Origin: a virus
Lineage: Duplodnaviria; Heunggongvirae; Uroviricota; Caudoviricetes
Virus record (IMG/VR): IMGVR_UViG_3300046047_000103
DNA length: 64,000 bases
Direction: 5' to 3' (one strand)
The number at the start of each line of letters is the position of its first letter. Within the stretch, counting starts at the first letter, position 1. The notes under the pieces are model-generated. The model did no database searches and was not told where the DNA came from. It worked only from the letters and a program-made list of their open reading frames with translations. A program made the translations under genes and the position numbers. This document shows, piece by piece, positions 16,044 to 64,000 of the stretch.

Positions 16044-16616
16044 ATGCCGTCATTCTTAACCAAGAAGAATTCGTTCATCGGAGCGGTCATCATTGTAGTC
16101 ATCGTCGTCTTCGTCGGATTCTTCCTCGCCGCGCAGGGCGCTAAGAACTCCGCCATCAAGCAGGAGAACATGATCGAGCGCGAGCAGTCTAATGTCCAGA
16201 CGATCGTGCAGAAGCGTGTTGATGCACTCACTGAGCTCATCAACACCGTCAAGGCGTCTAGCAAGTTCGAGCAGGATACAATCACCAAGCTCACTGATGC
16301 TCGCAGCAAGGCGAAGACCGGTGATATCGAGGGCAGCGCTACCGTTCTTCAGGCGACCGCGGAAGCGTATCCAGATCTGAAGAGCATTGACCTGTTCTCT
16401 CAGGTGAACCAGGAGACCGTCACCATCGAGAATCAGCTGTCGAATTCAAGGCAAGCGTATAACACGGCCATCCGCGACTACAGGAATAAGACGCAGACCT
16501 TCCCGAACAGCAGTCTGCTTGCAATGGCAGGGTACACTGCGAAGGACTACAAGCCGTTCACGGCTAATAGCTCCGCGCAGGACTACGATCCGTCATCTGA
16601 CAATCTCTGGAACTGA
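16044..16616 (+). CDS. lemA: LemA family membrane protein
   Basis: N-terminal TM. VDALTELINTVKAS...AYPDLKS...TENQL..R.AYN.A.RDYN...FP matches the LemA family. Confidence 0.8.
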   Translation: MPSFLTKKNSFIGAVIIVVIVVFVGFFLAAQGAKNSAIKQENMIEREQSNVQTIVQKRVDALTELINTVKASSKFEQDTITKLTDARSKAKTGDIEGSATVLQATAEAYPDLKSIDLFSQVNQETVTIENQLSNSRQAYNTAIRDYRNKTQTFPNSSLLAMAGYTAKDYKPFTANSSAQDYDPSSDNLWN

Positions 16617-16688
16617 TCACATACTGCCGGCACAGTCCGGCACTCATCATTAAGACCGTGTCTATGTTCTTAAGGAAAGAAGACGATC

Positions 16689-17510
16689 ATGTCCTTCCTC
16701 TCTCGGGGAGTACTTGGTAAGCTCAAGGGTCGGACGTTCCTGATCCTGGTGGCCATTCTCACAGGTCTTATCATTCTGACGACGATCAACGCCGTTCTTA
16801 TCAACATGTGGAAGGATCATGACAGCGAGGTCAGGAGTAAGATCATATCTGGTCTCTCCGTGACCACGGCCAAAGATCTTGGCTGGCAGGTGAAGACCCA
16901 GGCGGGCAATCTTGTCGTTCAGGGTAAGGTCACGATCCCGAAGGATCAGTGCGCCAGGTTCAATGAGATGGACGGATCATACTGCGCCGCATCCGTGACG
17001 AAGACCGAGGAGATCTATACCCGTCATGAACGCAAGTATGATTGCGGGGCCGATGCTCATCCGAGGACTTGCACTGAGGTCTATTGGTCATGGGATCTGG
17101 CCGGATCGTGGTCAGATCAGGCAAGCAATGGTGTGATCCTCGGCAAGACGCTCCCGTATTCATGGCTGCGTGCAAGTGAAGACAGAGTGGATCCATCCGT
17201 CATTGGTATCAATGGATGCAGATTTAGGTACTGCTATGAGGGATCTGGCATCAGATACTCATACAAGGCCGCTCCGGGGAGGTATTCAGGGGTCGCTTAT
17301 CTTACATCTGACAGTGATGGCCTGTCAAGCTTCAACGGATTCGATGAAGATGAGACCGCGGATGGAGCGAAGAATGCAGCCCAGCACCCGTCTGTGATTC
17401 CCGACGTCGTGTTCTGGATCGTTGAGTTCATTCTGATGGCAGCTGCCAGCGCTATTGGATTCACCGTCGTCAGGAATGACCTTGATGACGGTGCAGACAA
17501 TGATTTCTGA
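16689..17510 (+). CDS. membrane protein with a Cys-rich extracytoplasmic domain
   Basis: N- and C-terminal TM segments. Downstream of lemA. Confidence 0.5.
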   Translation: MSFLSRGVLGKLKGRTFLILVAILTGLIILTTINAVLINMWKDHDSEVRSKIISGLSVTTAKDLGWQVKTQAGNLVVQGKVTIPKDQCARFNEMDGSYCAASVTKTEEIYTRHERKYDCGADAHPRTCTEVYWSWDLAGSWSDQASNGVILGKTLPYSWLRASEDRVDPSVIGINGCRFRYCYEGSGIRYSYKAAPGRYSGVAYLTSDSDGLSSFNGFDEDETADGAKNAAQHPSVIPDVVFWIVEFILMAAASAIGFTVVRNDLDDGADNDF

Positions 17511-30024: not shown

Positions 30025-31083
30025 CTACTTCTTCTTAGATCTGCGATACGTTCGCGGCTTCGGGGGATTCTGCTCCCAGATCGTCTTCACATCGTCAAGC
30101 GTGATCGTACGCGGATCGTTACCATCAGGAAGCGAGATGAACTGGGCTCGTCCCTTCGGTGTCTTCTTGAACCCGATCCATGGACCCCGCTTACCGATGC
30201 CAGTGAAGTAGCCCTCACCGATCTGTCGGGGAAGCTTGATCTCGCTGAACAGCTTGCTAGCAGCATCGAATGTGATCGTGTTCTCATCGTATCCATCTGG
30301 TATCGTCATGTTCACGGGCTTCGCGCTCTTCACCGGTGCGCCCTTCGTGTTCAGCTTCACGGCTTGCACGTATGCGCCGTACTTACCGCTCTTCGCCGTC
30401 AACTGGTAGCCAGCGTACGGACCGTCAGACAGTACTCCAAGAACATGATTCACGATCGGCTTCGCGTCGGCTAGCAGCTTCTTGCAAGCATTCGGGGATA
30501 GGGCGTCTTCACTGGTGAGAGCATCATCGTCCAATCTCACGCTCTTCACGTACCCGTCATCATTCTTCTGACCCGACGGATCTTCCAGCCATGCTCCTGC
30601 CTTGTTCACTCTCACCACGTACCCGCCGTTCAGATGGATCTCGGACAGCGTGTTGACCTCATCCCAATTGATGTTCTTGGCAAGTCCGTTCACCTTGCGG
30701 TCAATGCCGTCGGATCCCTTCCACGCCGTGTCCAGGAACTCCTTCAACGTGATCTTCCCGGACGCGATGTCGTCAAGCTGATCTTCCATGTGAGCGGTGA
30801 AGCCGTAATCAATGAAGTCGGGCATGGTCGCATCCAAGATCTGCGCGACCTTCATGCCGGTCCATGTCGGGACCATGGCCTTACCCTTCTTCTGGACGTA
30901 CCCGCGCTTCTGGTTAACGGTGACAAGATTCGCATACGTGGATGGCCGGCCGATGCCAAGCTCTTCCATCTTGGCGACCAGCTGCGGTTCCGTGTACCGT
31001 GGTGGCGGGGTAGTCGTATGGGTCTGTGGAGAGGCGTTCGAGATCACACACTCTTCCCCGACCTTGAAGTCATAGTCTGTCAT
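30025..31083 (-). CDS. topA: DNA topoisomerase IA, C-terminal cistron
   Basis: PPPRYTEPQLVAKMEELGIGRPSTYANLV. Its ATG overlaps the upstream TGA (TGATG) and is preceded by AGGAGGG. Confidence 0.8.
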   Translation of the reverse strand: MTDYDFKVGEECVISNASPQTHTTTPPPRYTEPQLVAKMEELGIGRPSTYANLVTVNQKRGYVQKKGKAMVPTWTGMKVAQILDATMPDFIDYGFTAHMEDQLDDIASGKITLKEFLDTAWKGSDGIDRKVNGLAKNINWDEVNTLSEIHLNGGYVVRVNKAGAWLEDPSGQKNDDGYVKSVRLDDDALTSEDALSPNACKKLLADAKPIVNHVLGVLSDGPYAGYQLTAKSGKYGAYVQAVKLNTKGAPVKSAKPVNMTIPDGYDENTITFDAASKLFSEIKLPRQIGEGYFTGIGKRGPWIGFKKTPKGRAQFISLPDGNDPRTITLDDVKTIWEQNPPKPRTYRRSKKK

Positions 31084-32504
31084 CAGTCCCTCCTACCGTC
31101 GTCATAGACCTTCAGGAATCCTGGGTCATCTATTCTTGTACTTGCCGTCGTGAAGACAGCCTTGCCGTCAGTTGACGTGATCGTGATCTTCTTCGTCACT
31201 CCACGGGCCGGATCCATCTGACTGGCCACGCTTCTCCTATAGACAAGATCGTACACGTCCCCGGCCTTGTCGTCGAATGCTGATCCGCCCGTCATCCTAC
31301 GGATCTTGGATGGGGCATAGAACACCCCGGTCGCCTCATCGATCACGGGACGGATGCATTCATGGCCCTCCTGCGCGTTCTTCGACTTTGACTTGTAGAC
31401 AATGGGCTTTGCCGGCATCTTGCCTCCATACTGCTTCCTGATGATAGCCCTGGCTGCATTGATCGCCTCGCTGGCCATTGCCGGGCTGTCCGTCCTGGAG
31501 TACGTCTGGTACGTGTGCTCGAAGAGCTGCTGGGCGATCGTCATAGATCTGCTTGCGGACAGTCCTAGCAGGCTTCCAACATTCTGCTGGTATGATGACG
31601 TGGTGTACGGGACGGGTGGACGTCTGGCGTACGGTCGTTCCGTGATGTCCGTGATCGTGTACGCTAATGTCTTCAAGTCGCTGACGGCCTGTTGCAGATC
31701 TTTACCTAGAAGGACGATCTTCCCCTTGTTCTTCAGCTTGCCGTCAGCCGTGAAGTCGCCGGATCCAGCCATCTTCCTGCCATTCCATTCGACGAGTGAC
31801 GCTGTGATCTCATTCGGTCTGCCTTCATTGAAGACAGCGTCAATAGATCCGTACTCTGATGGGATGAATCTGATCCGCTCCTTCTCCCGGTCGACCACGA
31901 GACGAAGCGCCGGACTCTGCGCCCTGCCGCCGGACGTTCCTGACCCTACGGTCTTCCAGAGGTACGGGCTGACGCTGAATCCGAAGAGACGATCATACTC
32001 CTGACGGGCTTGTGCAGACTGTGCTTTCAAGGTGTCCACAGATCCGTACGCTTCAAGTCCGGCAAGCACGGCCTTCTTCGTGATCTCATGCCATGATGCT
32101 CGCCTGACATCCATGTGCTGCTTCTTCAGATCGTTCTTAAGCGAGTCGGCCACCTCGTATCCGATGAGTTCGCCGGCTTCATCAGGGTCAGTGCTGACAT
32201 AGAAGTGCTTCCAGCGGCCAGATCTGACCGCATCCCTGATCTCATTCCATTGCTTCCTGTTCTGCGGATCGTGGTCAAGCAGCCGATCATAACTGCCATC
32301 ACTGACATTGATCGAGTATGATCCGTAGATCTGCTTCTCATCCTTGGAGAGCTTCTTCGGATCCTTCAGCTCGAACATGAATCCCTTGGTAGGCATGATC
32401 AGCCATTTGGATCCCAGGAATCCGGAGATCTCCCTAGCCTTCGTCGGTGACTCTACGATCATCAGACCGCCGTCGCTTAGTATCGTTTTGATGTCATCAC
32501 TCAT
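31083..32504 (-). CDS. topA: DNA topoisomerase IA, N-terminal cistron (Toprim plus catalytic Tyr)
   Basis: IVESPTKAREI, DPDEAGELIGYEV, SGRAQSPALRLV and QTYSRTDSPAMAS (catalytic Tyr). Confidence 0.85.
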   Translation of the reverse strand: MSDDIKTILSDGGLMIVESPTKAREISGFLGSKWLIMPTKGFMFELKDPKKLSKDEKQIYGSYSINVSDGSYDRLLDHDPQNRKQWNEIRDAVRSGRWKHFYVSTDPDEAGELIGYEVADSLKNDLKKQHMDVRRASWHEITKKAVLAGLEAYGSVDTLKAQSAQARQEYDRLFGFSVSPYLWKTVGSGTSGGRAQSPALRLVVDREKERIRFIPSEYGSIDAVFNEGRPNEITASLVEWNGRKMAGSGDFTADGKLKNKGKIVLLGKDLQQAVSDLKTLAYTITDITERPYARRPPVPYTTSSYQQNVGSLLGLSASRSMTIAQQLFEHTYQTYSRTDSPAMASEAINAARAIIRKQYGGKMPAKPIVYKSKSKNAQEGHECIRPVIDEATGVFYAPSKIRRMTGGSAFDDKAGDVYDLVYRRSVASQMDPARGVTKKITITSTDGKAVFTTASTRIDDPGFLKVYDDGRRD

Positions 32505-39184: not shown

Positions 39185-39263
39185 TCCAGCTCCCTAGCAA
39201 GGTTGATCTTCATGGAATGAAGATATTCAGGGTGATGTTAGATCTCATTCGTAGGGAGGTCTT

Positions 39264-40751
39264 ATGAGCGTGAAGATCAGGTACGGTGTGGATGATCATG
39301 GCATGTTAAGCCCGTGCAGAGCTAAGCATGGCAATGAGGGCAAGTACGGCTGCCATCACGTTGATCATGTAGAGTTGACGCGAGACGAGTATCAAGAGCG
39401 AATGGAGCAGGCTTACAAGAACAGCGTGCTCGGTGAATCCTCTGCTCTTGGTCACAGAAATGATGGCCATTCTGAGGCCAGGAAGATCTCGCACATTGCC
39501 AAGCCTATCACTGAGATACCACATATAGATTCCGGTCAATATGATCGCACTACTGGAAGATTTCTCAATTCTCCAATAGCTCTTATGGAATACGATCATG
39601 AGAGCATGAAGAACGGGTACGCAAGCATCTTCACGGTCGTAGGTCATGATGGTGTGGATAAGATCGCATTAGACGATAAGATCCGGGGCCTGTCAGCATT
39701 GTCGCCAGATGAGGTCGAGGCCCGTGGCGCTAAGATCGCTAGTGAATTGGGTCTTGATGCGAATCATGTCAAGTCTGATGAGCTCGTCCGCAGATGGTTC
39801 CATGATAATAACGATGGAAGCAATGATCATCATGATGAGATCGTTGGTCCACTTCGTAATGATCTCATGAGGGAGATCGTTCCATTCCTTCCGCGTTCGG
39901 TCACGTCTTCCCATGACAGTATTCCGTTGAGCGCATCATACGCTAAGGCTGACACGATCCAGAGACGATACGGTCAGAAGGATACGAAGGAGGGTAAAGT
40001 CGCTGGATTCTACTCGACCGCTGGAACATGGTCTGAGAACGTTGTTCATGAGGTTGGGTTCAATAAGACCATGACGTTCGGAGCCAAGGATGTGTTGGAG
40101 TCGATACCAATCGGCCATGTTTTCTATAATGGATCGGGGCACGGGATGGGTGACCCAGTGAATGATACCCCTGACGCTCTGTCGAATGCAGCCGGAGGAA
40201 TGGAGGCCGGTGTAGGATGGATGAAGGTCAGTGATTCTACATGCAAGAAGGTTTGGATCGGTAAACGTCCAAGAGGTCATGACGGGACAAGATACGTGAA
40301 GATATCTGATTCGGTGACCTTATCAGGATGGAAGAAAGACAGATCTACTCATCATGTGAAGGTGTATGAAGTCCAGTCACAGGATGATAAGGCCGGTCAT
40401 ATCATCGTCATCAGGAGGCACGGATCCAGGGACAGTGTGAATTCAAAAGATTTCATGCTGAATCAGCTTGCTCATGAGTACACGCATTATCTCACGCATC
40501 AGCATCCGGGGCTTATGGATCCGGTCGGGAAGATGTATGACTCCCTCAAGGAGAAGAACGGATTCCCGAGGGCTAACGAGTATGCGGAGAGTCCGATCTA
40601 CATGGAGACGAATCCAACCGAATTCATCGCTGAGGCAACCGCGAGGATGATCCAGCCAAAAGGGCTGGCATCGTTATACGGATCTGACCATGACGAGCAG
40701 CTGAAGCGTCTTAGGAACTGGACGATAGGGTTCTGGGCGTCCCTCGCATAA
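39264..40751 (+). CDS. Cys/His-module family protein with a C-terminal HExxH zincin-like domain
   Basis: N-terminal SPCRAKHGNEGKYGCHH...HVELTRDEYQERMEQ. C-terminal LAHEYTHYLTHQ (HExxHxxxQ, zincin / DUF4157-like). Confidence 0.55.
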   Translation: MSVKIRYGVDDHGMLSPCRAKHGNEGKYGCHHVDHVELTRDEYQERMEQAYKNSVLGESSALGHRNDGHSEARKISHIAKPITEIPHIDSGQYDRTTGRFLNSPIALMEYDHESMKNGYASIFTVVGHDGVDKIALDDKIRGLSALSPDEVEARGAKIASELGLDANHVKSDELVRRWFHDNNDGSNDHHDEIVGPLRNDLMREIVPFLPRSVTSSHDSIPLSASYAKADTIQRRYGQKDTKEGKVAGFYSTAGTWSENVVHEVGFNKTMTFGAKDVLESIPIGHVFYNGSGHGMGDPVNDTPDALSNAAGGMEAGVGWMKVSDSTCKKVWIGKRPRGHDGTRYVKISDSVTLSGWKKDRSTHHVKVYEVQSQDDKAGHIIVIRRHGSRDSVNSKDFMLNQLAHEYTHYLTHQHPGLMDPVGKMYDSLKEKNGFPRANEYAESPIYMETNPTEFIAEATARMIQPKGLASLYGSDHDEQLKRLRNWTIGFWASLA

Positions 40752-40835
40752 GGTCACGGATCCATTTGCCGTATGATCTTATCTGTTGTATGATGATCTT
40801 GATCGAAGCGTTCTCCTCGATGAAAGAAATGATCA

Positions 40836-41894
40836 ATGAACATCATAGAGTCAAACAACTCGTTAAGCATCTTCCCTGATGGGGTGAAGGTCTATAAGAC
40901 CATACCGGCCGGCGTCTATAAGATAGAGTCAAGCGCTACTTCCGGATTCTATCTGGTGCGGCGCGGTGATCTTCCGGTGGACGGTAAGGTCTACGGGAAT
41001 CGTGATCATGAGGTCGATAAGGTCTTCACCATGTTCAATCACGTGGACAAGTCCCTCGGAGTGATCCTCTCCGGTCCTAAGGGCATTGGTAAGACCCTGT
41101 TCTCAAGAATGCTTGCACGGCATGCGATCAGTGTTGGGATTCCGGTCATTCTCGTGACTGACAACACTGATGGGATCCAGAATTATCTTGAAAGCATTGA
41201 CCAGAAGGCCATGATCTTGTTCGACGAGTTCGAGAAGACCTTCCTGAACGTCTCATCGGACAATACAGGTGGATGCACTCAGGACGATCTGCTCTCCCTG
41301 TTCGATGGGCTATCCACCGCCAAGCACTTGAACGTGATTACCGTGAATGACATCGGCAGGGTAAGCTCATTCCTCGTGAATCGTCCTGGAAGATTCCATT
41401 TCAACATCAGGTTCATGTATCCAACCGCTGATGAGATCAGGGAGTACTTGCATGATCAGCTGGATGACCAGGAGTATGAAGACATCGATGAGATCGTCCA
41501 GTTCTCCGGGAAGTACCCGTTGAATTACGATTGCCTCAAGGCCATCGTCGATGAGGTCAATCTGTTCCATGAGCCGTTCGAGGACACGATCAAGGACCTT
41601 AACATCGTCAACTGGGGCATCGAATCGATCTTCAAGTATCAGGTCGTATGGAAGAATGGAAGGGTATGGTCTACAACCGAGACTGATGCTCCGTTCAATG
41701 ATAGCATGTCATTCATCTTCGACGATGGGAATTACTGCGATAACGTCGAGATACCCACGTCTAATATGGAGAGGGACAGGAATGGGAACATCGTGGTGAC
41801 AGATCTCAGCTTCATAGATAGCCATTTCCCTGATCGAGCGAATCTTGAGAAGATCGTGATCTCAATTGACCGGAAGGACTACCTGGCATTCTGA
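40836..41894 (+). CDS. AAA+ ATPase
   Basis: Walker A GPKGIGKT and Walker B ILFDEFE. Confidence 0.6.
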   Translation: MNIIESNNSLSIFPDGVKVYKTIPAGVYKIESSATSGFYLVRRGDLPVDGKVYGNRDHEVDKVFTMFNHVDKSLGVILSGPKGIGKTLFSRMLARHAISVGIPVILVTDNTDGIQNYLESIDQKAMILFDEFEKTFLNVSSDNTGGCTQDDLLSLFDGLSTAKHLNVITVNDIGRVSSFLVNRPGRFHFNIRFMYPTADEIREYLHDQLDDQEYEDIDEIVQFSGKYPLNYDCLKAIVDEVNLFHEPFEDTIKDLNIVNWGIESIFKYQVVWKNGRVWSTTETDAPFNDSMSFIFDDGNYCDNVEIPTSNMERDRNGNIVVTDLSFIDSHFPDRANLEKIVISIDRKDYLAF

Positions 41895-42012
41895 TCATTC
41901 AAGGGGCTAGATGCATCATTGCGTCTAGCCCCTTATTGGCATGTTAACCCCCTCTTCACGCATGAGATTGACCTAACATGTTGTTAGATTGATTCCATGG
42001 TAGATAGATCTA

Positions 42013-42603
42013 TTGACGGAGGTGTCTATGAGATGTCATCTTGGTAAGAATGGTAAGATGGCTCCATGCCACGCGGAGAAGAAGGCATGTCCACTTGGAT
42101 CTAGTCGGCACGTTGATCTTAAAGACATCGAGTCGGTAAGACAGTACAATGACTTCAGCGGAAGCGATGACTACAGTCACCTGTCATCACATGTGAGAGC
42201 AACGATCATACGCCGCGGATCGTTGAATGATCGGCAATACGAGTCAAGCGTCGGTGACGCTATGCAAGCCGGTGATGATCCAAGCTCTCCAGGATACATC
42301 ACCCAGGCCGTTCGGAATGGGGACGCGGCTGCGTTCATGAGGGTCGCGGAAACTGACAAGTTCAATTCTTTACCAGATGAGATTGTAGACAAGACCTATG
42401 AACGGATCGTCAATGATGCGGCCATTGATCCAGAGTCAAGGTCTGGCGAGAATGAGGAGGCGTTGCAGTCTATCCACTCCATGTTCGTTGGCATGAGAAA
42501 CAATGATGCGATAGATAAAAGAACGCGTGGATGGGCTACGTACATGGCCATGAAGATGGAGAGATCTGTACCCGTCCATTACTACACGACCGTGGGAGCA
42601 TAG
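42013..42603 (+). CDS. Cys/His-module family protein
   Basis: N-terminal GKNGKMAPCHAEKKACP. Confidence 0.45.
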   Translation: MTEVSMRCHLGKNGKMAPCHAEKKACPLGSSRHVDLKDIESVRQYNDFSGSDDYSHLSSHVRATIIRRGSLNDRQYESSVGDAMQAGDDPSSPGYITQAVRNGDAAAFMRVAETDKFNSLPDEIVDKTYERIVNDAAIDPESRSGENEEALQSIHSMFVGMRNNDAIDKRTRGWATYMAMKMERSVPVHYYTTVGA

Positions 42604-42613
42604 GAGGCGGCTG

Positions 42614-43738
42614 ATGCTGTACGGAATCAAGAAGAGTAATGACGGATCGGTTAAGATCACTCCGTGCAGAGCGAAGGATCCGGAGCACTGCCCGTATCAT
42701 ACGAAGCATGTGGAATGGTCTAAGCAGGAGTATCAGGATAAGATGGAAGAGCTGCTAGCGCCTGTCACCGGCAACAAGCTCAGCAAGATGTCCACAGACG
42801 GTGAATACGATGAACCGGCATCAATCATCATGTTCGATCATACGATACTAGATCATCTTGAGCATAAGAACTACGACCCCCAGTATGACATGATCGATGA
42901 CTACCGCAGTCTGGATACGGCTGGTCTTAGCGCTGGCGATGCAAGAGCAGTGAGGTCTCAGGCCGAGAACATTCTTGCTGACAGGATCAGCGCCAACAGC
43001 CCCGTGGCCGGCGACAGCATAGCCATGGAGCTCATCGAGGGCGATGATGAGCATCGTGGTCTTGGCAGGCCGTTCGCTATGAAGCTTCTTGAGCGCATGG
43101 ACGATCTGTCGTCAGACATGGCGAACGATCTGATCACATATGATCTCTCCACGGAGGGCGATGAAGATCATGCCGTCACGATGAAGATCATCAAGGACAC
43201 TGGCCGTCGGAACAAGTACGGGGTCCATCTGCATCGGATCGTATCCCAGCGTGGGGACATCAGCGACCCCATCGTGCAGGCAGCCGTGAAGAAGATCGAT
43301 TGGTCTAAGATGGATCTTGACATCTCATTCGGTGACAAGGTGTGGGATGACAAGGCCACCCGTGCGTCCATGGTAAGCAGGTTGAAGCGTCTGGCCCCGA
43401 AGAACGTGAGTCAGTCACTGTACGTTGATCTTTATGATCCGAGGGTCAAGCTCTCGTATGATCATAAGAATGAGCTTGCAGGCAAGTTGACCAGGTATGA
43501 TGACAGGGTTACGTTCTTGAAGAATCTTGATCTTGCCAATGATGTCGAGCCTGTTCGCATCATGTTTGATCATATGGATCGTGACCATAGTGCTAGCGGT
43601 TTTGCCTTCAAGTCGACCGTTGCCAGGGCGGTCACCGAGGGCCGTAAGGTGCACCGATCCATCCTCCATGAGATCGGGTTCGATGACGAGAAGGCGGCTG
43701 GGGTCTGGCTCCGAAAGCTTCAGGGAACTCATCGCTGA
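42614..43738 (+). CDS. Cys/His-module family protein
   Basis: N-terminal DGSVKITPCRAKDPEHCPYHTKHVEWSKQEYQDKMEE. Confidence 0.5.
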   Translation: MLYGIKKSNDGSVKITPCRAKDPEHCPYHTKHVEWSKQEYQDKMEELLAPVTGNKLSKMSTDGEYDEPASIIMFDHTILDHLEHKNYDPQYDMIDDYRSLDTAGLSAGDARAVRSQAENILADRISANSPVAGDSIAMELIEGDDEHRGLGRPFAMKLLERMDDLSSDMANDLITYDLSTEGDEDHAVTMKIIKDTGRRNKYGVHLHRIVSQRGDISDPIVQAAVKKIDWSKMDLDISFGDKVWDDKATRASMVSRLKRLAPKNVSQSLYVDLYDPRVKLSYDHKNELAGKLTRYDDRVTFLKNLDLANDVEPVRIMFDHMDRDHSASGFAFKSTVARAVTEGRKVHRSILHEIGFDDEKAAGVWLRKLQGTHR

Positions 43739-43838
43739 CCGTTAGCTTCGGCGCGTCTGAACGATCTGCGTGATACGATAGAATTGTTCGATGACGGAAG
43801 CACCGTTCTAGCGGACTGGCGGAGAATGGAATGGTAAG

Positions 43839-45323
43839 ATGGCAGATTCAAGGATCTGGGGATCCGGCGAGGCGAAGCCTATCCATATCAGTGACGATGG
43901 TCTGATACGGCCATGTGAAGATCCAGGGCATTGCAGATTCAAGGAGAGGAATCTGCAGGTCGCCGTGCGCGCGGATGCGGATCATGAATCCATGGTGCTG
44001 GCACTTGCCGCCAGACTCTTCCACGAGAATCTTCTCAAGCTCCCGGCTGGTCATATCGCCGTAAGAGACATGGATGAGCGCGGCATACCGATTACTGACG
44101 AGCATCTGGGATGGATGCCGTCACGACAAGCAGCGCTGCGGCAGCTGCGAGCATCTGGTCTCACAGATCTTGACCTGCTAGAGTCAGGTCTGGCTGATCT
44201 TGCCGCTGGAAGTACTGATCTACAGATCTTCGCTCATGACAGGCTGACGATCTCCGTCCATGATGCTGGCAGGGTGGCCGCATTCTATGCAAGATCATAC
44301 GCTGATAAGACCTGCGGCCCTAGGACAGCTAAGATCGGTGACGCTACGGCTACCATGACATCGGGTCTTAAGTACGTGAGGTCAAGACCGGCGTCATACA
44401 TGGTTCCGCCGCGTGATCCAAAGAGTCAGAGATTCACGAAGCCGTACGAGGACCCGATGTTCCTTCTTGACGAGAATCAGGGGGAGATCCGCAAGCGTGA
44501 CGCGATCATCATCGTGGAGGGTCAGCTGGATGCGCTTGCTTGCACGGCTGCGGGCATTAAGAACGTGGTGGCCATAGCCGGGATGACGAACTTCTACCAG
44601 CATCAGCTTGATGAGTGCAAGTGTCTGCTGACAAGCGCAGGCAAGATCATCCTATGCCTTGATGCGGATGACGCCGGTATCCGTGGTCTCTCCAGCGTGA
44701 TCAGAAGATTCCCGGATGAGGACATCCGTGCGTGCAGCCTGCCGGACGGGAAGGACCCCTGCGAGTACCGGGCTGAGCACGGTGACGACGCTCTGAGAAG
44801 AGCGCTTGATGATCATGAAGATGGTAAAAGGTTCATGGTCCGAAGGACGCCGTATGGTGAGATCCCGCGGCTTATCGCTGCCGTCAACGATGCTGGCAAG
44901 AGGGATGATCTGATACGATTCGCGGCAGGTCTTGACGCTAACACATGGACGGTTGACGGTCTTGCCGATCATGTCCGCAAGCTGTATCCGGTTGAGAGCC
45001 ATCATGCTCACCAGCGTCCGTACCGTGAGCGCAGGCGCTGGGTGAGAGCGCTTGGAGTCTATCCAGGCTCACTGACACCCAGTAAGAGCTTTGAGGATCG
45101 GTTACGATCTAATGACAGACTCAGACTGATCGCGTCCGTCGCCCTTCTGGCAAGACGAGATGGAGTCACCCTGGATAGCACTGTACGTAGCATGGTCCCA
45201 AAGAAGTTGAGATCCGCCGATGATGCTGACCCGATCTGGAAGATCGTGGAGGATGTCATGGATGAGGGATCTTTACAAGATCTTCTCGATAAGATCAGAT
45301 CCGCGACGTTACGGCATGTCTAA
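43839..45323 (+). CDS. Cys/His-module family protein with a Toprim domain (primase-like)
   Basis: N-terminal DDGLIRPCEDPGHCRF. Toprim signature IIIVEGQLDALACTAAGIKNVVAIAGMT...ILCLDADDAG. Confidence 0.55.
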   Translation: MADSRIWGSGEAKPIHISDDGLIRPCEDPGHCRFKERNLQVAVRADADHESMVLALAARLFHENLLKLPAGHIAVRDMDERGIPITDEHLGWMPSRQAALRQLRASGLTDLDLLESGLADLAAGSTDLQIFAHDRLTISVHDAGRVAAFYARSYADKTCGPRTAKIGDATATMTSGLKYVRSRPASYMVPPRDPKSQRFTKPYEDPMFLLDENQGEIRKRDAIIIVEGQLDALACTAAGIKNVVAIAGMTNFYQHQLDECKCLLTSAGKIILCLDADDAGIRGLSSVIRRFPDEDIRACSLPDGKDPCEYRAEHGDDALRRALDDHEDGKRFMVRRTPYGEIPRLIAAVNDAGKRDDLIRFAAGLDANTWTVDGLADHVRKLYPVESHHAHQRPYRERRRWVRALGVYPGSLTPSKSFEDRLRSNDRLRLIASVALLARRDGVTLDSTVRSMVPKKLRSADDADPIWKIVEDVMDEGSLQDLLDKIRSATLRHV

Positions 45324-53211: not shown

Positions 53212-53245
53212 ATGAAAGTATGTTAGATGTGACATGTAAATCAAC

Positions 53246-53530
53246 GTGAGCAGAAGCCAGGAGCATCATATGAAGTATGTCATCGTCGATGGGCGGGTCA
53301 CGCCCTGTCGGGCAGCAGACCCGAATCATTGCCGGTATCATGTCGGCGCTACGCACTACGCTTCAAAGCACGATGCTACTGTAGAACTTGAACGGGAGAT
53401 CAGGAATGATGTCCCCGCGAAGAATGGTCTTAGGAAGAACGACGTCGTTGAAGAGGAGACCGTGAGATCATGCATCAAGACCGGCAAGCATCTTGTTGAC
53501 CTGGCCGCAGGTAGGGTCACTAAATGGTAG
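53246..53530 (+). CDS. small Cys/His-module family protein
   Basis: VIVDGRVTPCRAADPNHCRYH. Confidence 0.45.
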   Translation: MSRSQEHHMKYVIVDGRVTPCRAADPNHCRYHVGATHYASKHDATVELEREIRNDVPAKNGLRKNDVVEEETVRSCIKTGKHLVDLAAGRVTKW

Positions 53531-55043: not shown

Positions 55044-56093
55044 ATGATGAGAACAGGAGGGAATGCAATGGCTCGTAAGAAGAATCCAGATCCATCTGAA
55101 TACAATAAGGGGCTGAAGAAATCAGAGCTTCTGCAACGGAGGATCTTCATCACGACCCTACTGTACATCGGAATGAATGAAGATCTTATCTCCGAGAAGC
55201 TGGAGATACCAATGAACATCATCATGGATGATCTGAACTGGATATTCATGAACAGGCCCGACGTGATCGCGCAGGCGAAGCAGCAGTTCATCGATCTGTG
55301 GAAGATCGATCCGAGTTCTGACATCACCAGCGAGTTCGCGGACAAGATCACGAAGGTCTATAGCGAGCTTGACCCCAAGACCCTGCAGGGCGCGTTGAAG
55401 CAGATGGAAGGGCTGAGTGAGTCTGAACCAGATCTGGATACGATCCTTGGCGCGGATGAAGACGCTGACGATGACGTTGACATGTTCCAGATGGATGAAG
55501 ATGAAGACGACGATGAGGACACGGATGAAGACCCTGTGGAGCGGAAGTCCACGCTGTCACCTGAGGAAGAGTCTGAGTTCAATGATCTGGCGAGTGAGCT
55601 CAATGGGATCAGTGCTGGCGTCTATAAGGACGTGTATCTTAAGGCCGCTATGATCGTATCAGTCCAATGGGTAGCCCGTCCAGTGCTTGGCGGTCACCTG
55701 TTCGGAAGGGTCAATATGATCAACAGCTTCCTGGACAGTGTGATGCAGGACGTGAAGACGGGGATGTATAAGCTGCATTCATCGCCAATGGTTATGGGCG
55801 TCGCGGCCACCCTCGTTGACGTCATCCATGGCGGTGGCAAGACGCTAGATCCGTCCGTCATGCTGGCCGTATCCCTCAGACCAGACTGGATGGCGAATGG
55901 GGGAGCGACCCGGGGAGCTAAGCCGGATGAGATCGAAGCGATCTCGACATGGTTCTCGGCGCTGAAGAGCAATGATCCGGAGGCCATGGCTTATGTCGAC
56001 TCGATACCGACCCCCATTGGAGTCCAGATCGATGATGAAGGCAATCTGACCCCGGGGAACCTGCCTCCAGATCTGGACGCAGGATCATGGTAG
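55044..56093 (+). CDS. hypothetical protein with an acidic central region
   Basis: 349-aa ORF. Confidence 0.45.
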   Translation: MMRTGGNAMARKKNPDPSEYNKGLKKSELLQRRIFITTLLYIGMNEDLISEKLEIPMNIIMDDLNWIFMNRPDVIAQAKQQFIDLWKIDPSSDITSEFADKITKVYSELDPKTLQGALKQMEGLSESEPDLDTILGADEDADDDVDMFQMDEDEDDDEDTDEDPVERKSTLSPEEESEFNDLASELNGISAGVYKDVYLKAAMIVSVQWVARPVLGGHLFGRVNMINSFLDSVMQDVKTGMYKLHSSPMVMGVAATLVDVIHGGGKTLDPSVMLAVSLRPDWMANGGATRGAKPDEIEAISTWFSALKSNDPEAMAYVDSIPTPIGVQIDDEGNLTPGNLPPDLDAGSW

Positions 56094-60522: not shown

Positions 60523-61401
60523 TCAGAACGTGAACACGATCTTGAGTCTGCAGGTGTCAAGCAGCTTCAGATTGTATGAGAGACGATCGATGTCTGACAG
60601 CATGGACTGCAACGATCTGCTGCTACCGAGTCTGGATAAGATCATGCCTTCAGGTGAGATCACCCATTCAGGATGCTGCGCGTCTTGATGGTCGAAGATC
60701 TTGGGCTTCCTGCCGATCCATGCAAGAGCTGGCTTCATAGATGCGGACAGGTTGAGGACAGCGTCAGACCACGCTTCAGCATAAGCGGTCTTCACGCCCT
60801 CCTTCCTCAGATCGTTCCAGGTGATGTCCTCATTCCTGATAGCATCATAGATCCCGACACTTACCGTCTTATGAATGATCGTGCTGTCCTTACTGATCCC
60901 CTCCGACCATGACGCGATCTGCTCCAGTCCACCCGAGTACAAGCCCATACGATCGAGTTCACCGTCTGATGAGACGCTCCGGACGTCTGACCACCATTCG
61001 GGTCTGCGCATGATCGAATCTGCGGAAGGCCTCCATATGGGCTCGAAGATCAATGGTTCTCCAGATCTGTGATGATCCCGCACCATGCGGATGAGTCGCA
61101 TGCTGATGAGCGCGCGGGCTGACGACATCTCCTGGGATGCAGGTGTCCGCAGTGTCTTCATGACCGGGGGATCAGTCTTGTCATGATCTTCCAGCCAGGC
61201 CACGGCTGCATTCTTGTCCGTCCAGTGTCTCATGGGCTTCCCGTTCTTATCCCTATGATTACGGCACTGCTTCGGGTCTTTCGCATAGCATTTCTCAAGA
61301 CGTCCATCAGATATGACCCAGGAGATCTTCGACATGGTATGAAGATATGCAGATCTGGGCTCTTGTAGGATGCGGACAAGACCTGGCGGCGATGATAGCA
61401 T
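60523..61401 (-). CDS. Cys/His-module family protein
   Basis: VISDGRLEKCYAKDPKQCRNH. Confidence 0.45.
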   Translation of the reverse strand: MLSSPPGLVRILQEPRSAYLHTMSKISWVISDGRLEKCYAKDPKQCRNHRDKNGKPMRHWTDKNAAVAWLEDHDKTDPPVMKTLRTPASQEMSSARALISMRLIRMVRDHHRSGEPLIFEPIWRPSADSIMRRPEWWSDVRSVSSDGELDRMGLYSGGLEQIASWSEGISKDSTIIHKTVSVGIYDAIRNEDITWNDLRKEGVKTAYAEAWSDAVLNLSASMKPALAWIGRKPKIFDHQDAQHPEWVISPEGMILSRLGSSRSLQSMLSDIDRLSYNLKLLDTCRLKIVFTF

Positions 61402-62015: not shown

Positions 62016-62089
62016 CGGGTCGTAGCCCAGCTTGGTAGGGCGCCTCGTTCGGGACGAGGAGGCCGCGGGTTCAAATCCCGCCAACCCGA
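62016..62089 (+). tRNA. tRNA-Pro (anticodon CGG)
   Basis: Cloverleaf folded by hand. D arm gccc/gggc, anticodon arm cctcg-ttcggga-cgagg, T arm gcggg-ttcaaat-cccgc. One C.A mismatch in the acceptor stem. No encoded CCA. Confidence 0.7.
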
Positions 62090-62180
62090 CACGCCGTGGG
62101 AACACGATTGTCAACGACCGTGTTATCATGGATAACGCCGCGCTTCACGGAGCGTCGATAACTTAAGAATGCACCATCAA

Positions 62181-62254
62181 CGGGATGTAGCGCAGCTTGG
62201 TAGCGCGCTTGCTTTGGGAGCAAGATGCCGCAGGTTCGAATCCTGTCATCCCGA
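62181..62254 (+). tRNA. tRNA-Pro (anticodon UGG)
   Basis: Acceptor cgggatg/catcccg is a perfect pair. Anticodon arm cttgc-tttggga-gcaag. T arm gcagg-ttcgaat-cctgt. Confidence 0.75.
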
Positions 62255-62792
62255 CGATGATCGCCTGATTCTCGTGACTGACTGATCGAGTGACGCTCGT
62301 GAAGATCAGCCGCGATGGTGATCTGAATAACTGAATACAGAACTGCTCGCACCAGTTGGAAGCAAAGTGCGCGACGGCCCGGGTACCGGAATGTGAAAGA
62401 ACTCACCCTGCTTGGTCACGAAGATCACCATGTAGTCGATGGTGCAGTGACGGAGCGCCTGAATACAGGATCGAGCATGGGGAAGCCATCGCCCTGATTC
62501 TTGAAGGTCCGTATGGATCTGATGGAGATGTACATTGTACGTCAGCAACGCGATGATAACTCATGAACGGGATTACCAGCGTCATTCATGGAATGTTGAC
62601 GACCCGTAGACATAAACAAGTTCCTTCAGATTATCTTCAAAACGATGCAGATCTGCGGTCGGTGCGATGCAGATCTGAGGTCGTCGTCCCACCGGTGAGA
62701 TGCACCGGCAACCGTTGATGATGCTGTGACCGCATCATTGACAGCACATGTGGTCATCGTCGTGCTGGCGGACGTGAAACGCCAGTTCTTAT

Positions 62793-62867
62793 TCCCCGGG
62801 AGCAACCTTCGGCGGCTGCGATCGACTGTTAATCGATAGAGAGCTGGTTCGACTCCAGTCCGGGGAG
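62793..62867 (+). tRNA. tRNA-Asn (anticodon GUU), with an atypical D arm
   Basis: Acceptor tccccgg/ccgggga. Anticodon arm atcga-ctgttaa-tcgat. T arm gctgg-ttcgact-ccagt. The D region is 2 nt longer than canonical. Confidence 0.55.
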
Positions 62868-63069
62868 CGATGGTTGAAAAGGGCGAAGATTGTTAAAAGA
62901 TTGCTCATCATTCTGAATCCACGTGGTAGCTCCTCGTGGACGATGATAGGAAAGTCCGGAATCGAAAACTGATGACGATCATACTCTGGTCAATGTGCCA
63001 TACAATCGGGAGGTCCATATCGTAATTCAGCGAGGCCTAGCGAGTAATTGACCTCAAGGTCCATCCAAT

Positions 63070-63146
63070 GCTTTCATGGCCCAATCGGCAGAGGCGCAGG
63101 GCACACTGCAGACCTGTTCATACTGGTTCGACTCCAGTTGGAAGCA
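63070..63146 (+). tRNA. tRNA-like element with a non-canonical anticodon region (possible pseudo- or unusual tRNA)
   Basis: Good acceptor (gctttca/tggaagc) and T arm (actgg-ttcgact-ccagt), and a D arm of the Leu/Ser type (ccaatcggcagaggc). No 5-7-5 anticodon hairpin can be drawn; the best fit is gcagg-gcacactgcaga-cctgt with a 12-nt loop. Confidence 0.3.
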
Positions 63147-63259
63147 CGCAGTATCAGTAGGCTATGAGCTGGCAGCGTGACGCAAGTCATCTTGGTTATC
63201 TGTGACCACCAGCGAGCTGAATGCAATAGCAGACGGGTGAGTGCAAGGCTCACCATCAT

Positions 63260-63344
63260 GGATGATTCGCATAGAGGCCTAGTGCACTTGTCTTGAAAAC
63301 AAGAGTGGGTCACACCACCGGGGGTTCGAATCCCTCATCATCCG
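63260..63344 (+). tRNA. tRNA-Ser (anticodon UGA), type II
   Basis: Acceptor ggatgat/atcatcc is a perfect pair. 3-bp D stem. Anticodon arm cttgt-cttgaaa-acaag. Long variable arm gtgg-gtcaca-ccac. T arm ggggg-ttcgaat-ccctc. Confidence 0.75.
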
Positions 63345-63454
63345 CGACCCGTACGTTGGGTCCATCTGGCGACACGATGGATTGGCGGTCCATCTTCTCC
63401 TGGCGGGGGATAGCCGGTTGATGTGATCGCATACGGATTGCATCGCATACAGAT

Positions 63455-63539
63455 GCCCTCATGGCTGGAATAGGTAGACGCGGACGGCTCAAACCCGTCT
63501 CCCGTAATGGGGATCTCGGTTCGACTCCGAGTGAGGGTA
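63455..63539 (+). tRNA. tRNA-Leu (anticodon CAA), type II
   Basis: Acceptor gccctca/tgagggt. D loop ggaataggtagac. Anticodon arm gacgg-ctcaaac-ccgtc. Long variable arm. T arm ctcgg-ttcgact-ccgag. Confidence 0.7.
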
Positions 63540-63804
63540 CGACGAACACATCGGGCGGCTTAATCACCCGTCCGGTCGTGGGCATACATATGTCGCGCGT
63601 GGACGTGATTGATCCACGTGGATAGCCCGTTGCCAGGCATGTCCCGGCGGAAGTTTGATGCAGATTCTGCGTAGTTCGTCTTCCGTTGGGATCACTTGAA
63701 GACAGGTGCGGCCCGTTGGCTGCGGTGGAAGTGGGGTCCGAGTACCCAACGGTACCGGTTAGACTCCGGCTCCGGCGCGTGGGAACTCATCCATCTCCAT
63801 ATCT

Positions 63805-63878
63805 GCTCTCTTAGCCCAATTGGTAGAGGCGATAGACCAAGGATCTATTCAGTGCGGGTTCGAGTCCCGTGGAGAGCA
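63805..63878 (+). tRNA. tRNA with an unusual anticodon loop CCAAGGA (apparent anticodon AAG, with C at position 33)
   Basis: Acceptor gctctct/ggagagc. Anticodon arm ataga-ccaagga-tctat. T arm gcggg-ttcgagt-cccgt. Confidence 0.45.
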
Positions 63879-64000
63879 CAGATCTCATGACATCCTTACG
63901 GATGTCCTCTGAGATTCAGGGTCGATTCACTGTGGTGGTGATGAACATGCTCAAGGCCCGTCATGCAAGCATAGGAGTATGGAGCGAAGTTCCTATGTGG

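Follow-up and report, generated by a model that had tools for sequence, protein, structure and literature searches.

Membership of the six open reading frames

Why would proteins with unrelated bodies, encoded close together on one viral genome, open with the same short Cys/His sequence? The question arises from a 64,000-nucleotide stretch of DNA (the window) from the IMG/VR virus record IMGVR_UViG_3300046047_000103 (Caudoviricetes), in which an initial annotation had described six open reading frames (ORFs) sharing an N-terminal module. We have high confidence that this module is a real N-terminal domain family, not previously described and probably zinc-binding, that has so far been found only on huge-phage-like metagenomic contigs. 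Our confidence is also high that it confers a common property on the otherwise unrelated proteins that carry it.

The profile used for membership was built purely from family members outside the window, to avoid circularity, and was scored against 1165 six-frame window segments. Strong scores were obtained for p5 (53270..53530, + strand, 86 aa; E 7e-23; same sequence as P0001), p3 (42614..43738, + strand, 374 aa; E 6e-17), p6 (60523..61335, – strand, 270 aa; E 2e-12; same sequence as P0002) and p1 (39264..40751, + strand, 495 aa; E 4e-10; same sequence as P0005). They were followed by p2 (42028..42603, + strand, 191 aa; E 1.5e-3, rank 5 of 1165) and by p4, a DnaG-type primase (43839..45323, + strand, 494 aa; E 0.03), after which the next-ranked segment was noise (E 1.8). 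On these profile scores the set is read as four solid members (p1, p3, p5 and p6), one probable member (p2) and one marginal member (p4). Leave-one-out profiles within the window agreed with this ranking, p2 not being recovered by them, and no further module members were found in the window. All six ORFs were at or near the positions first assigned to them, and the proposal that six share one module was upheld far above chance for four; p2 is only probable and the primase is a distant look-alike.

Three start codons were corrected: p2 to ATG 42028 (with GGAGG 7 nt ahead), p5 to ATG 53270 (agreeing with the JGI gene call) and p6 to ATG 61335. The stand-alone version given earlier as 94 aa exists as p5 and is 86 aa long from its ATG. 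The module is canonical in p3 (residues 1–48, 42614–42757; C18, C26, H29, H32) and occupies residues 1–45 in p5 (53270–53404), which has a 30-residue tail after the linker motif described below. In p1 (residues 1–51, 39264–39416) the knuckle carries a 4-residue insertion (C18...C30-H31-H32..H35), and in p6 (residues 1–52, 61180–61335) a 9-residue insertion separates the two His. From its sequence p2 is a probable member of a 'C-P-L-G...H' variant without the first His, like P0042. Orthologues were found for p5 (P0008, P0011 and P0012) and for p6 (P0007).

Two exact copies of ATGTTAGAT were present in the 64 kb (39235–39243 and 53220–53228), each within ~50 nt upstream of p1 or p5, and a one-mismatch copy (TTGTTAGAT) lay at 41981–41989, upstream of p2. 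Judging by sequence and position, this box may be a promoter element common to the three genes.

Family, conservation and predicted fold of the module

A profile of the six module sequences was scored exhaustively against 1.84 billion protein cluster representatives with a cut-off of E <= 1e-3. The exhaustive hidden Markov model (HMM) search was needed, word-indexed homologue searches with module alignments having given 1 and 3 matches. Forty-six clusters were retained, two of which were spurious repeat proteins; in all 44 true clusters the module lay within the first ~50 residues of proteins 68–505 aa long. Sources were looked up for 20 clusters: all were ENA, Logan or JGI metagenomes, none had an informative name, and the contigs reached 270, 386, 420, 491 and 568 kb. 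IMG/VR held one close relative (419.7 kb) with two module members inside 6 kb. Tandem paralogue arrays of module genes were seen both in the window (four in 6 kb) and on the related contig L003 (four solid members inside ~6 kb, with a weaker fifth match).

Conservation was counted over 47 aligned N-termini (p3 numbering). Near-invariant positions were C18 (47/47), C26 (46/47), H32 (46/47), A20 (45/47), E45 (44/47) and H29 (43/47), and strong conservation was also found at Y3, G4, D10, G11, K21, D22, P23 and Y28. The two Cys were 7 residues apart in 45 of the 47 sequences, and the two His were separated by 2–9 residues. AlphaFold2 was run on p3 residues 1–78 with the 47-sequence alignment and gave a predicted local distance difference test (pLDDT) score >90 for residues 1–45 and of ~60 (59–63) for linker residues 50–78; with the six-sequence alignment only, the pLDDT was 60 and the model unusable. 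Predicted elements were two strands (2–7 and 13–17), a turn (~23–25), a third strand (31–34) and a helix (37–48). The conservation pattern, rather than the coordinates of this confident model, suggests that a zinc ion is coordinated by C18, C26, H29 and H32.

Two earlier descriptions are refined by the model. The 'HVE...EYQ..ME' segment, regarded as an extension of two members, is present in p1 and p3 but corresponds to strand 3 and the helix of the module, which occur in divergent form in all members. The 'small zinc ribbon' is right as to the Cys/Cys/His/His set, but the model predicts three strands forming a sheet, a single knuckle and a helix, which differs from the classical ribbon with its two knuckles.

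No match to the module was found in Pfam, in PHROGs, among PDB sequences by profile search, or by Foldseek against PDB and BFVD (E >= 0.27), and a literature search for the motif strings returned no description of it; the view that this is not a described domain was borne out. The profile-HMM search aligned the module far above chance and matched no known primase or RNA-polymerase finger family. It was likewise correct that the module is neither the DnaG CHC2 finger nor the T7 C4 ribbon: the CHC2 profile (Zn_ribbon_DnaG) gave no match at E <= 1 for the six window proteins, and in place of the four Cys in two CxxC knuckles of the T7 gp4 type the module has two conserved Cys 7 residues apart and two His. 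Its pattern (C-x7-C-x2-H-x2-9-H) also differs from classical C2H2 spacing (C-x2-4-C-x12-H-x3-5-H, with His on the helix); both module His precede the helix in the model, and there was no Pfam C2H2 match. Pfam found no Phage_Mu_F domain in the six window proteins or in 45 family members scanned. The module is hydrophilic, without the h-region of a Sec, Tat or lipoprotein signal at the N-terminus. Its net charge is ~0 to +1.4, and the conserved surface residues are mostly acidic or structural (E39, E45, D22). A basic DNA-binding linker was considered and is unsupported, the net charge being only ~+1.

Variable C-terminal bodies

The C-terminal parts were described as unrelated, and no significant mutual similarity was detected among them after residue 62. 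Pfam recognised few bodies in the 45 family members scanned: a non-specific endonuclease (locus L002, 160–1398), an HNH domain (P0044), HEAT repeats (P0022) and one DUF7448, placed on P0057, a member of the P0023 cluster. The p1 body, called an HExxHxxxQ zincin in the initial annotation, does contain HEYTH (HExxH), read from the sequence, and P0028 and P0041 contain HEAxH; the zincin assignment has no support in any database, the p1 body having no Pfam, PHROG or PDB match. No PDB relatives were found for the bodies of p1, p3 or p6. P0006 has nearly the same N-terminus as p5 fused to a 400-residue body, which points to shuffling by recombination at the linker. The picture of a conserved N-terminal handle on diversified payloads stands insofar as the module is always N-terminal on unrelated bodies; the primase, on which the case for a primase-like finger chiefly rested, belongs to the family only marginally.

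Among 112 distinct proteins, a hydrophobic segment with a lipobox followed the linker in two that passed the threshold (P0033, residues 92–108; the L025 ORF, residues 112–128). The equivalent segment of the L002 nuclease (~residue 100) reads SLAAC by eye and falls just under the hydrophobicity threshold. These lipoprotein-type signal peptides (LAAC, MSAC or SLAAC, then G) lie ~90–125 residues from the N-terminus, downstream of module and linker.

A conserved motif in the linker

Downstream of the module helix, in the linker predicted to be disordered, the motif N-x-L-[SRK]-[KR] is conserved. Position 56 was L, I or M in 45 of the 47 sequences, position 58 was K or R in 37 and position 54 was N in 18. 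The motif stood 11–13 residues past E45 in 32/43 scorable sequences, the residues between not being conserved; the background rate of L[SRKN]K[polar] in window proteins was 6.4e-4 per residue. Two copies were present in P0019 and in P0042. Within the window the motif is clean in p3 (N54-K-L-S-K58, 42773–42787) and p5 (N52-G-L-R-K56, 53423–53437), degenerate in p1 (L62-G63-H64, 13 residues past the helix Glu) and p6 (L62-R-T64, 12 residues past the helix Glu), and absent at the usual spacing in p2 and p4.

The site that the T4 prohead protease cuts is L/I-x-E. The cleavage motif of giant-phage prohead proteases is reported to be A/S/G-x-E (PMC10052503). The form of the linker motif, with an aliphatic residue two before a last position at which K and R are interchangeable, matches the P3/P1 form of such known sites.

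Separately, a 349-aa protein of the window (55044–56093) without the module carries N-K-G-L-K-K-S, which resembles the linker motif, at residues 21–27, and has a long Asp/Glu-rich stretch.

A minimal N-terminal tag

The short tag C-x-A-K-D-P-x-x-C-x-[YF]-H was back-translated to a 37-bit DNA pattern, and three collections were scanned (metagenome contigs, IMG/VR, and bacterial and archaeal genomes). Metagenome contigs gave 68 matches, 64 of them in frame in long ORFs; 58 had <=45 open codons upstream, so that the tag must be N-terminal there. IMG/VR gave 3 matches. Bacterial and archaeal genomes (596 Gb) gave 7 matches against ~9 estimated by chance, and 5 of the 7 were outside ORFs; a cellular origin of the tag was rejected for these reasons.

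Thirty-seven distinct proteins began M-x(2-8)-C-x-A-K-D-P-x-x-C-x-[YF]-H, often followed by G, with no preceding hairpin. Their bodies include three ADP-ribosyltransferases (Pfam ADPrib_exo_Tox / ART) that open with MTSEKCRAKDPASCRYHG or a close variant (L073 1010–1651; L017 3945–4604, – strand; L013 1241–2011), and one protein with a KKDGT motif reads by eye like a ligase. The contigs reached 0.72–0.89 Mb and also encode CysRS, Tpt1, PNKP, DnaB and a normal CHC2 DnaG. Ten loci (L013, L017, L028, L031, L042, L051, L059, L011, L057 and L068) were on contigs of 725–885 kb, which to our knowledge exceeds any known phage genome; these contigs could be phage, plasmid-like or cellular.

The L-x-K motif was found in only 4 of the 37 short-tag proteins. 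It was accordingly rejected as a universal companion of the tag, and the invariant core is the knuckle, with the hairpin, helix and linker motif as lineage-specific elaborations.

A third variant, C-x-A-K-D-P-x-N-C-x-[YF]-H-[GK]-T-G-[KR]-[YF]-A, was also observed (L052, L070, L063, L024, L039, L050, L015, L075 and L077). It is sometimes internal, not N-terminal, and occurs on two contigs binned into Kiritimatiellae metagenome-assembled genomes.

The primase p4 and its N-terminal variant

The Toprim/primase-like domain attributed to one member was verified in p4, where Toprim occupies residues 222–310 (Pfam Toprim_2 4.6e-16) and the RNA-polymerase and Toprim core aligns to PDB DnaG structures from ~residue 94. 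The N-terminal 60 residues (43839–44018) hold a module-like hairpin and C-x5-C without the two His, in the slot of the CHC2 zinc-binding domain, and no Pfam Zn_ribbon_DnaG (CHC2) match was found in p4. Twenty p4 orthologues (41–56% identity) conserve M-H-L-S-P-D-G-x-L-R-R-C-x-S-P-x-N-C-R-Y-K ... F-H-E-N-L; this variant has the hairpin and two Cys at C-x5-C and lacks both His and the L-x-K linker motif. Since the orthologues form a separate conserved variant, and with a module profile E of 0.03, p4 was rejected as a typical family member; its N-terminus is possibly a distant relative of the module. Placement directly N-terminal to a primase RNA-polymerase domain was seen in p4 only, as this divergent variant, the other members having no primase body. 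PF01807 was present in the true DnaG relatives P0103 and P0104.

The neighbours of the p4 primase are not syntenic between relatives. Beside a 45%-identical primase on L084 (2874–7341; ENA ERZ922480 scaffold_900), SecE, SecG, SecY and SecA are encoded in a row; this primase sequence (P0090) occurs on contigs up to 567,674 bp, and L084 also encodes fructose-bisphosphate aldolase, a ribosome hibernation factor and an IS605 TnpB. A Sec translocon carried by a phage would be remarkable. The closest large relative, L085 (JGI Ga0455790_000002, 419.7 kb), has adjacent fructose-bisphosphate aldolase and triosephosphate isomerase genes and an anti-Pycsar Apyc1-like metallo-beta-lactamase-fold protein (750–2728 and 16055–16726).

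Proposed function and alternatives

We tentatively propose, by analogy, that the module is a docking domain coupled to a processing site and functions like a capsid targeting sequence, a reading that is the best of those considered and plausible, though on balance doubtful. The initial annotation had suggested either a capsid-targeting or effector handle or a nucleic-acid-binding recruiter, and both are candidate readings here. A position that is strictly N-terminal, a linker predicted to be disordered, a motif at fixed spacing and the K/R-tolerant aliphatic-x-basic form of that motif fit best with a docking domain followed by a site on which the docked partner acts. The module would then serve huge phages of a single uncultivated lineage as a shared 'address and processing label' at the N-terminus: folded, it would dock to a single phage-encoded partner, which would act on N-x-L-[SRK]-[KR] 11–13 residues downstream in the linker. 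The likeliest and simplest action would be endoproteolytic cleavage after the basic residue, freeing the variable body (nuclease, metalloprotease-like, HNH, repeat protein or, most often, an unrecognised fold), and the likeliest destination would be the prohead. Zinc binding, docking, cleavage and capsid destination are all inferred only, the capsid destination being the weakest of these steps.

T4 offers the closest parallel. The internal proteins of T-even phages are described as highly diverse, the capsid targeting sequence alone being conserved (PMC3012670). Like the module, the T4 sequence (IPI-III, Alt) is a conserved N-terminal element on unrelated, fast-diverging and often clustered proteins of a large phage and is followed by a short aliphatic-x-charged site. 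The ADP-ribosyltransferase payload of T4 parallels the short-tag proteins: the phage packages and injects Alt, an ADP-ribosyltransferase, and the ADP-ribosyltransferase bodies on short-tag proteins of other huge-phage-like contigs were counted in favour of a packaged and injected destination. The two systems differ in that the T4 element is an unstructured ~10-residue peptide cut at L/I-x-E, whereas the module is predicted to be a folded ~48-residue CCHH domain with a linker and L-x-K/R. Their sequences do not resemble each other and no PHROG match was obtained, the module genes lie among replication genes, and for the module cleavage and packaging are only proposed.

In the giant phages phiKZ, 201phi2-1 and SPN3US, many head and ejection proteins have N-terminal propeptides of 20–254 residues, which the prohead protease cuts off at a motif of three residues, in some cases at more than one site (PMC10052503). 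The linker motif is likewise duplicated in some module members. The propeptides differ in not being one shared domain and in their A/S/G-x-E motif, and no homology was detected. We know of no zinc site in giant-phage propeptides. MuF-type and other polymorphic toxins follow the same architectural logic, with a constant trafficking domain at the N-terminus, a toxin or enzyme at the C-terminus that varies, and recombination where the two join; they differ in that the module matches neither Phage_Mu_F nor a known trafficking domain, no adjacent immunity genes were identified, and most bodies are not recognisable toxins.

Several observations weigh against a packaging label. In related contigs the neighbours of long-form module genes are replication, recombination and nucleotide-metabolism genes, not head genes: DnaB-like helicases, exonucleases, SbcC and UvsX/RadA-like recombinases, and further thymidylate synthase, dNMP kinase, ABC transporters, FtsK and HNH genes. 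Genes for a capsid, a portal or a prohead protease were looked for and not found, either among the scanned ORFs of the window or among 59 ORFs that neighbour module genes at related loci. One widespread orthologue group (P0013, P0016-18, P0020, P0027, P0038 type) lies directly upstream of RadA in two divergent genomes, with SSB and DnaB following RadA in the one that has the longer flank. The lipoprotein signal peptides after the linker suggest that their proteins leave the infected cell instead of being packaged, and together with the replication-gene context and the RadA synteny they weaken the capsid destination. The motif is clean in only two of the six window members, degenerate at the right spacing in two and absent there in two. 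A predicted 48-residue folded zinc domain is far more elaborate than known capsid targeting peptides, we know of no prohead protease with L-x-K specificity, and the known members (20 clusters sourced) are all metagenomic, none coming from a cultured phage.

In the main rival reading the module is a zinc finger for DNA transactions: it would bind nucleic acid, either single- or double-stranded, or a hub of the replisome (such as SSB, DnaB or RadA) and recruit assorted enzymes to sites of replication and recombination, the linker motif serving as a short linear motif for hub binding. We regard this as unlikely. It would account for the CCHH ligand set and the confident predicted fold, for the related-looking hairpin and Cys pair in the CHC2 slot of the primase (conserved in 20 orthologues), for neighbours such as DnaB, primase, exonuclease, SbcC, UvsX/RadA, SSB, thymidylate synthase and PNKP, for the synteny of one orthologue group with RadA, and for nuclease and HNH payloads and, on the short tag, the ligase-like KKDGT protein. 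The near-neutral module and its acidic or structural conserved surface speak against it, however, as does the lack of any match to a Pfam nucleic-acid-binding finger. The primase variant, lacking the His pair and the motif and scoring E 0.03, may not be homologous, and it differs from CHC2 as well. A small N-terminal Cys/His domain, and in p4 a look-alike ahead of the RNA-polymerase domain, recall DnaG CHC2 and T7 gp4 C4, but the module has a single knuckle, unlike CHC2 and unlike the paired CxxC knuckles. Exported lipoproteins and ADP-ribosyltransferase toxins among the payloads also count against this rival, which leaves the K/R-tolerant motif at fixed spacing unexplained.

In another reading the module is a pro-domain or regulatory cap that keeps potentially toxic bodies inactive or stable; its removal or unfolding at the linker (by a phage or host protease, or by a metal or redox change) would activate or destroy the body at a set time of infection without any capsid. 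Several bodies would be toxic (the non-specific endonuclease, HNH, HExxH/HEAxH and the short-tag ADP-ribosyltransferases), the disordered linker bears a protease-like motif at fixed spacing, and three of the six genes stand behind the rare ATGTTAGAT box, hinting at co-regulation. We nevertheless consider a pro-domain improbable: many bodies look non-enzymatic (repeat proteins, the 30-residue tail of p5), a distant domain on a flexible linker makes a poor inhibitor of unrelated folds, and a cognate protease was not identified.

A targeting tag for a membrane, translocon or other phage-built compartment or translocation machine is very improbable, the module being hydrophilic and folded unlike Sec or Tat signals, with any hydrophobic segment in <5% of members and no Sec genes in the window or beside the primase of the closer relative L085, against which stand the SecE, SecG, SecY and SecA genes beside the 45%-identical primase of L084 (whose sequence is on contigs to 568 kb, as is the module-bearing P0127), the lipobox signal peptide after the linker in at least two members and the signal-like position of the short tag at the extreme N-terminus in other huge-phage-like contigs.

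Context of the window

Window positions 43270–63530 were identical to the JGI metagenome contig Ga0455797_000015 (349,703 bp; 0 mismatches in 20,261 bases). Each window coordinate is 91 higher than that of the record; as the window begins 91 bases ahead of base 1 of that record, it may derive from an identical twin or a re-circularised copy. No GenBank phage matched at the DNA or protein level (megablast of the cluster; tblastn of p3 and p5), and cultured-phage records searched for module relatives contained none. The lone tblastn match of the consensus module (E = 3), to the C-terminal end of an Arthrobacter phage Amigo membrane protein, was judged spurious.

The gene complement of the 64-kb window is a huge-phage set: ribonucleotide reductase, rIIA, rIIB, TelA, a flotillin-like protein, a tail-lysozyme/tape-measure-like protein, a CHAP peptidase, polynucleotide kinase-phosphatase, a clamp-loader subunit, IF-3, CCA-adding enzyme and seven tRNAs. 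Within the module-gene cluster, 40836..41894 (+ strand) encodes a non-member AAA+ / STAND-like ATPase (Pfam AAA 3e-10, nSTAND3 8e-8). A type IA topoisomerase is divided between two abutting ORFs (30025–31083 and 31083–32504, – strand), one with Toprim and the initial part of Topoisom_bac and the other with the remainder and C-terminal repeats. The seven tRNAs (ARAGORN) lie at 62016–63879; the one at 63070–63147 was called with a four-base anticodon (actg) and could either suppress frameshifts or be degenerate.

Significance

A constant N-terminal handle with variable cargo is an architecture already known; what is new is the domain itself, its linker motif and the minimal knuckle tag. Neither the domain nor the minimal tag is represented in Pfam, PHROGs or PDB, which makes both worth defining as new families. 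Huge phages may possess an unrecognised zinc-dependent protein-addressing system, an idea we put forward as possible but rather unlikely. Its 13-residue N-terminal knuckle core would in this lineage have been expanded into a folded domain with an N-x-L-x-K processing site, and it would send dozens of unrelated enzymes, toxins and unrecognised proteins per genome to a single place. This could be the inside of the capsid, from which they would be injected, or a compartment or translocon built by the phage. If true, such a system spans several lineages, on contigs of 0.2 to ~0.9 Mb.

A shared N-terminal label would sort part of the hundreds of huge-phage genes of unknown function into one class that can be found in any metagenome. 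If the module proves to be a replisome or DNA adaptor, it would represent a new zinc-finger class. If the label directs packaging and injection, it would define the 'first-strike' protein arsenal of these uncultivated phages and, as is done with the T4 capsid targeting sequence, could be put to use in loading capsids with foreign proteins.

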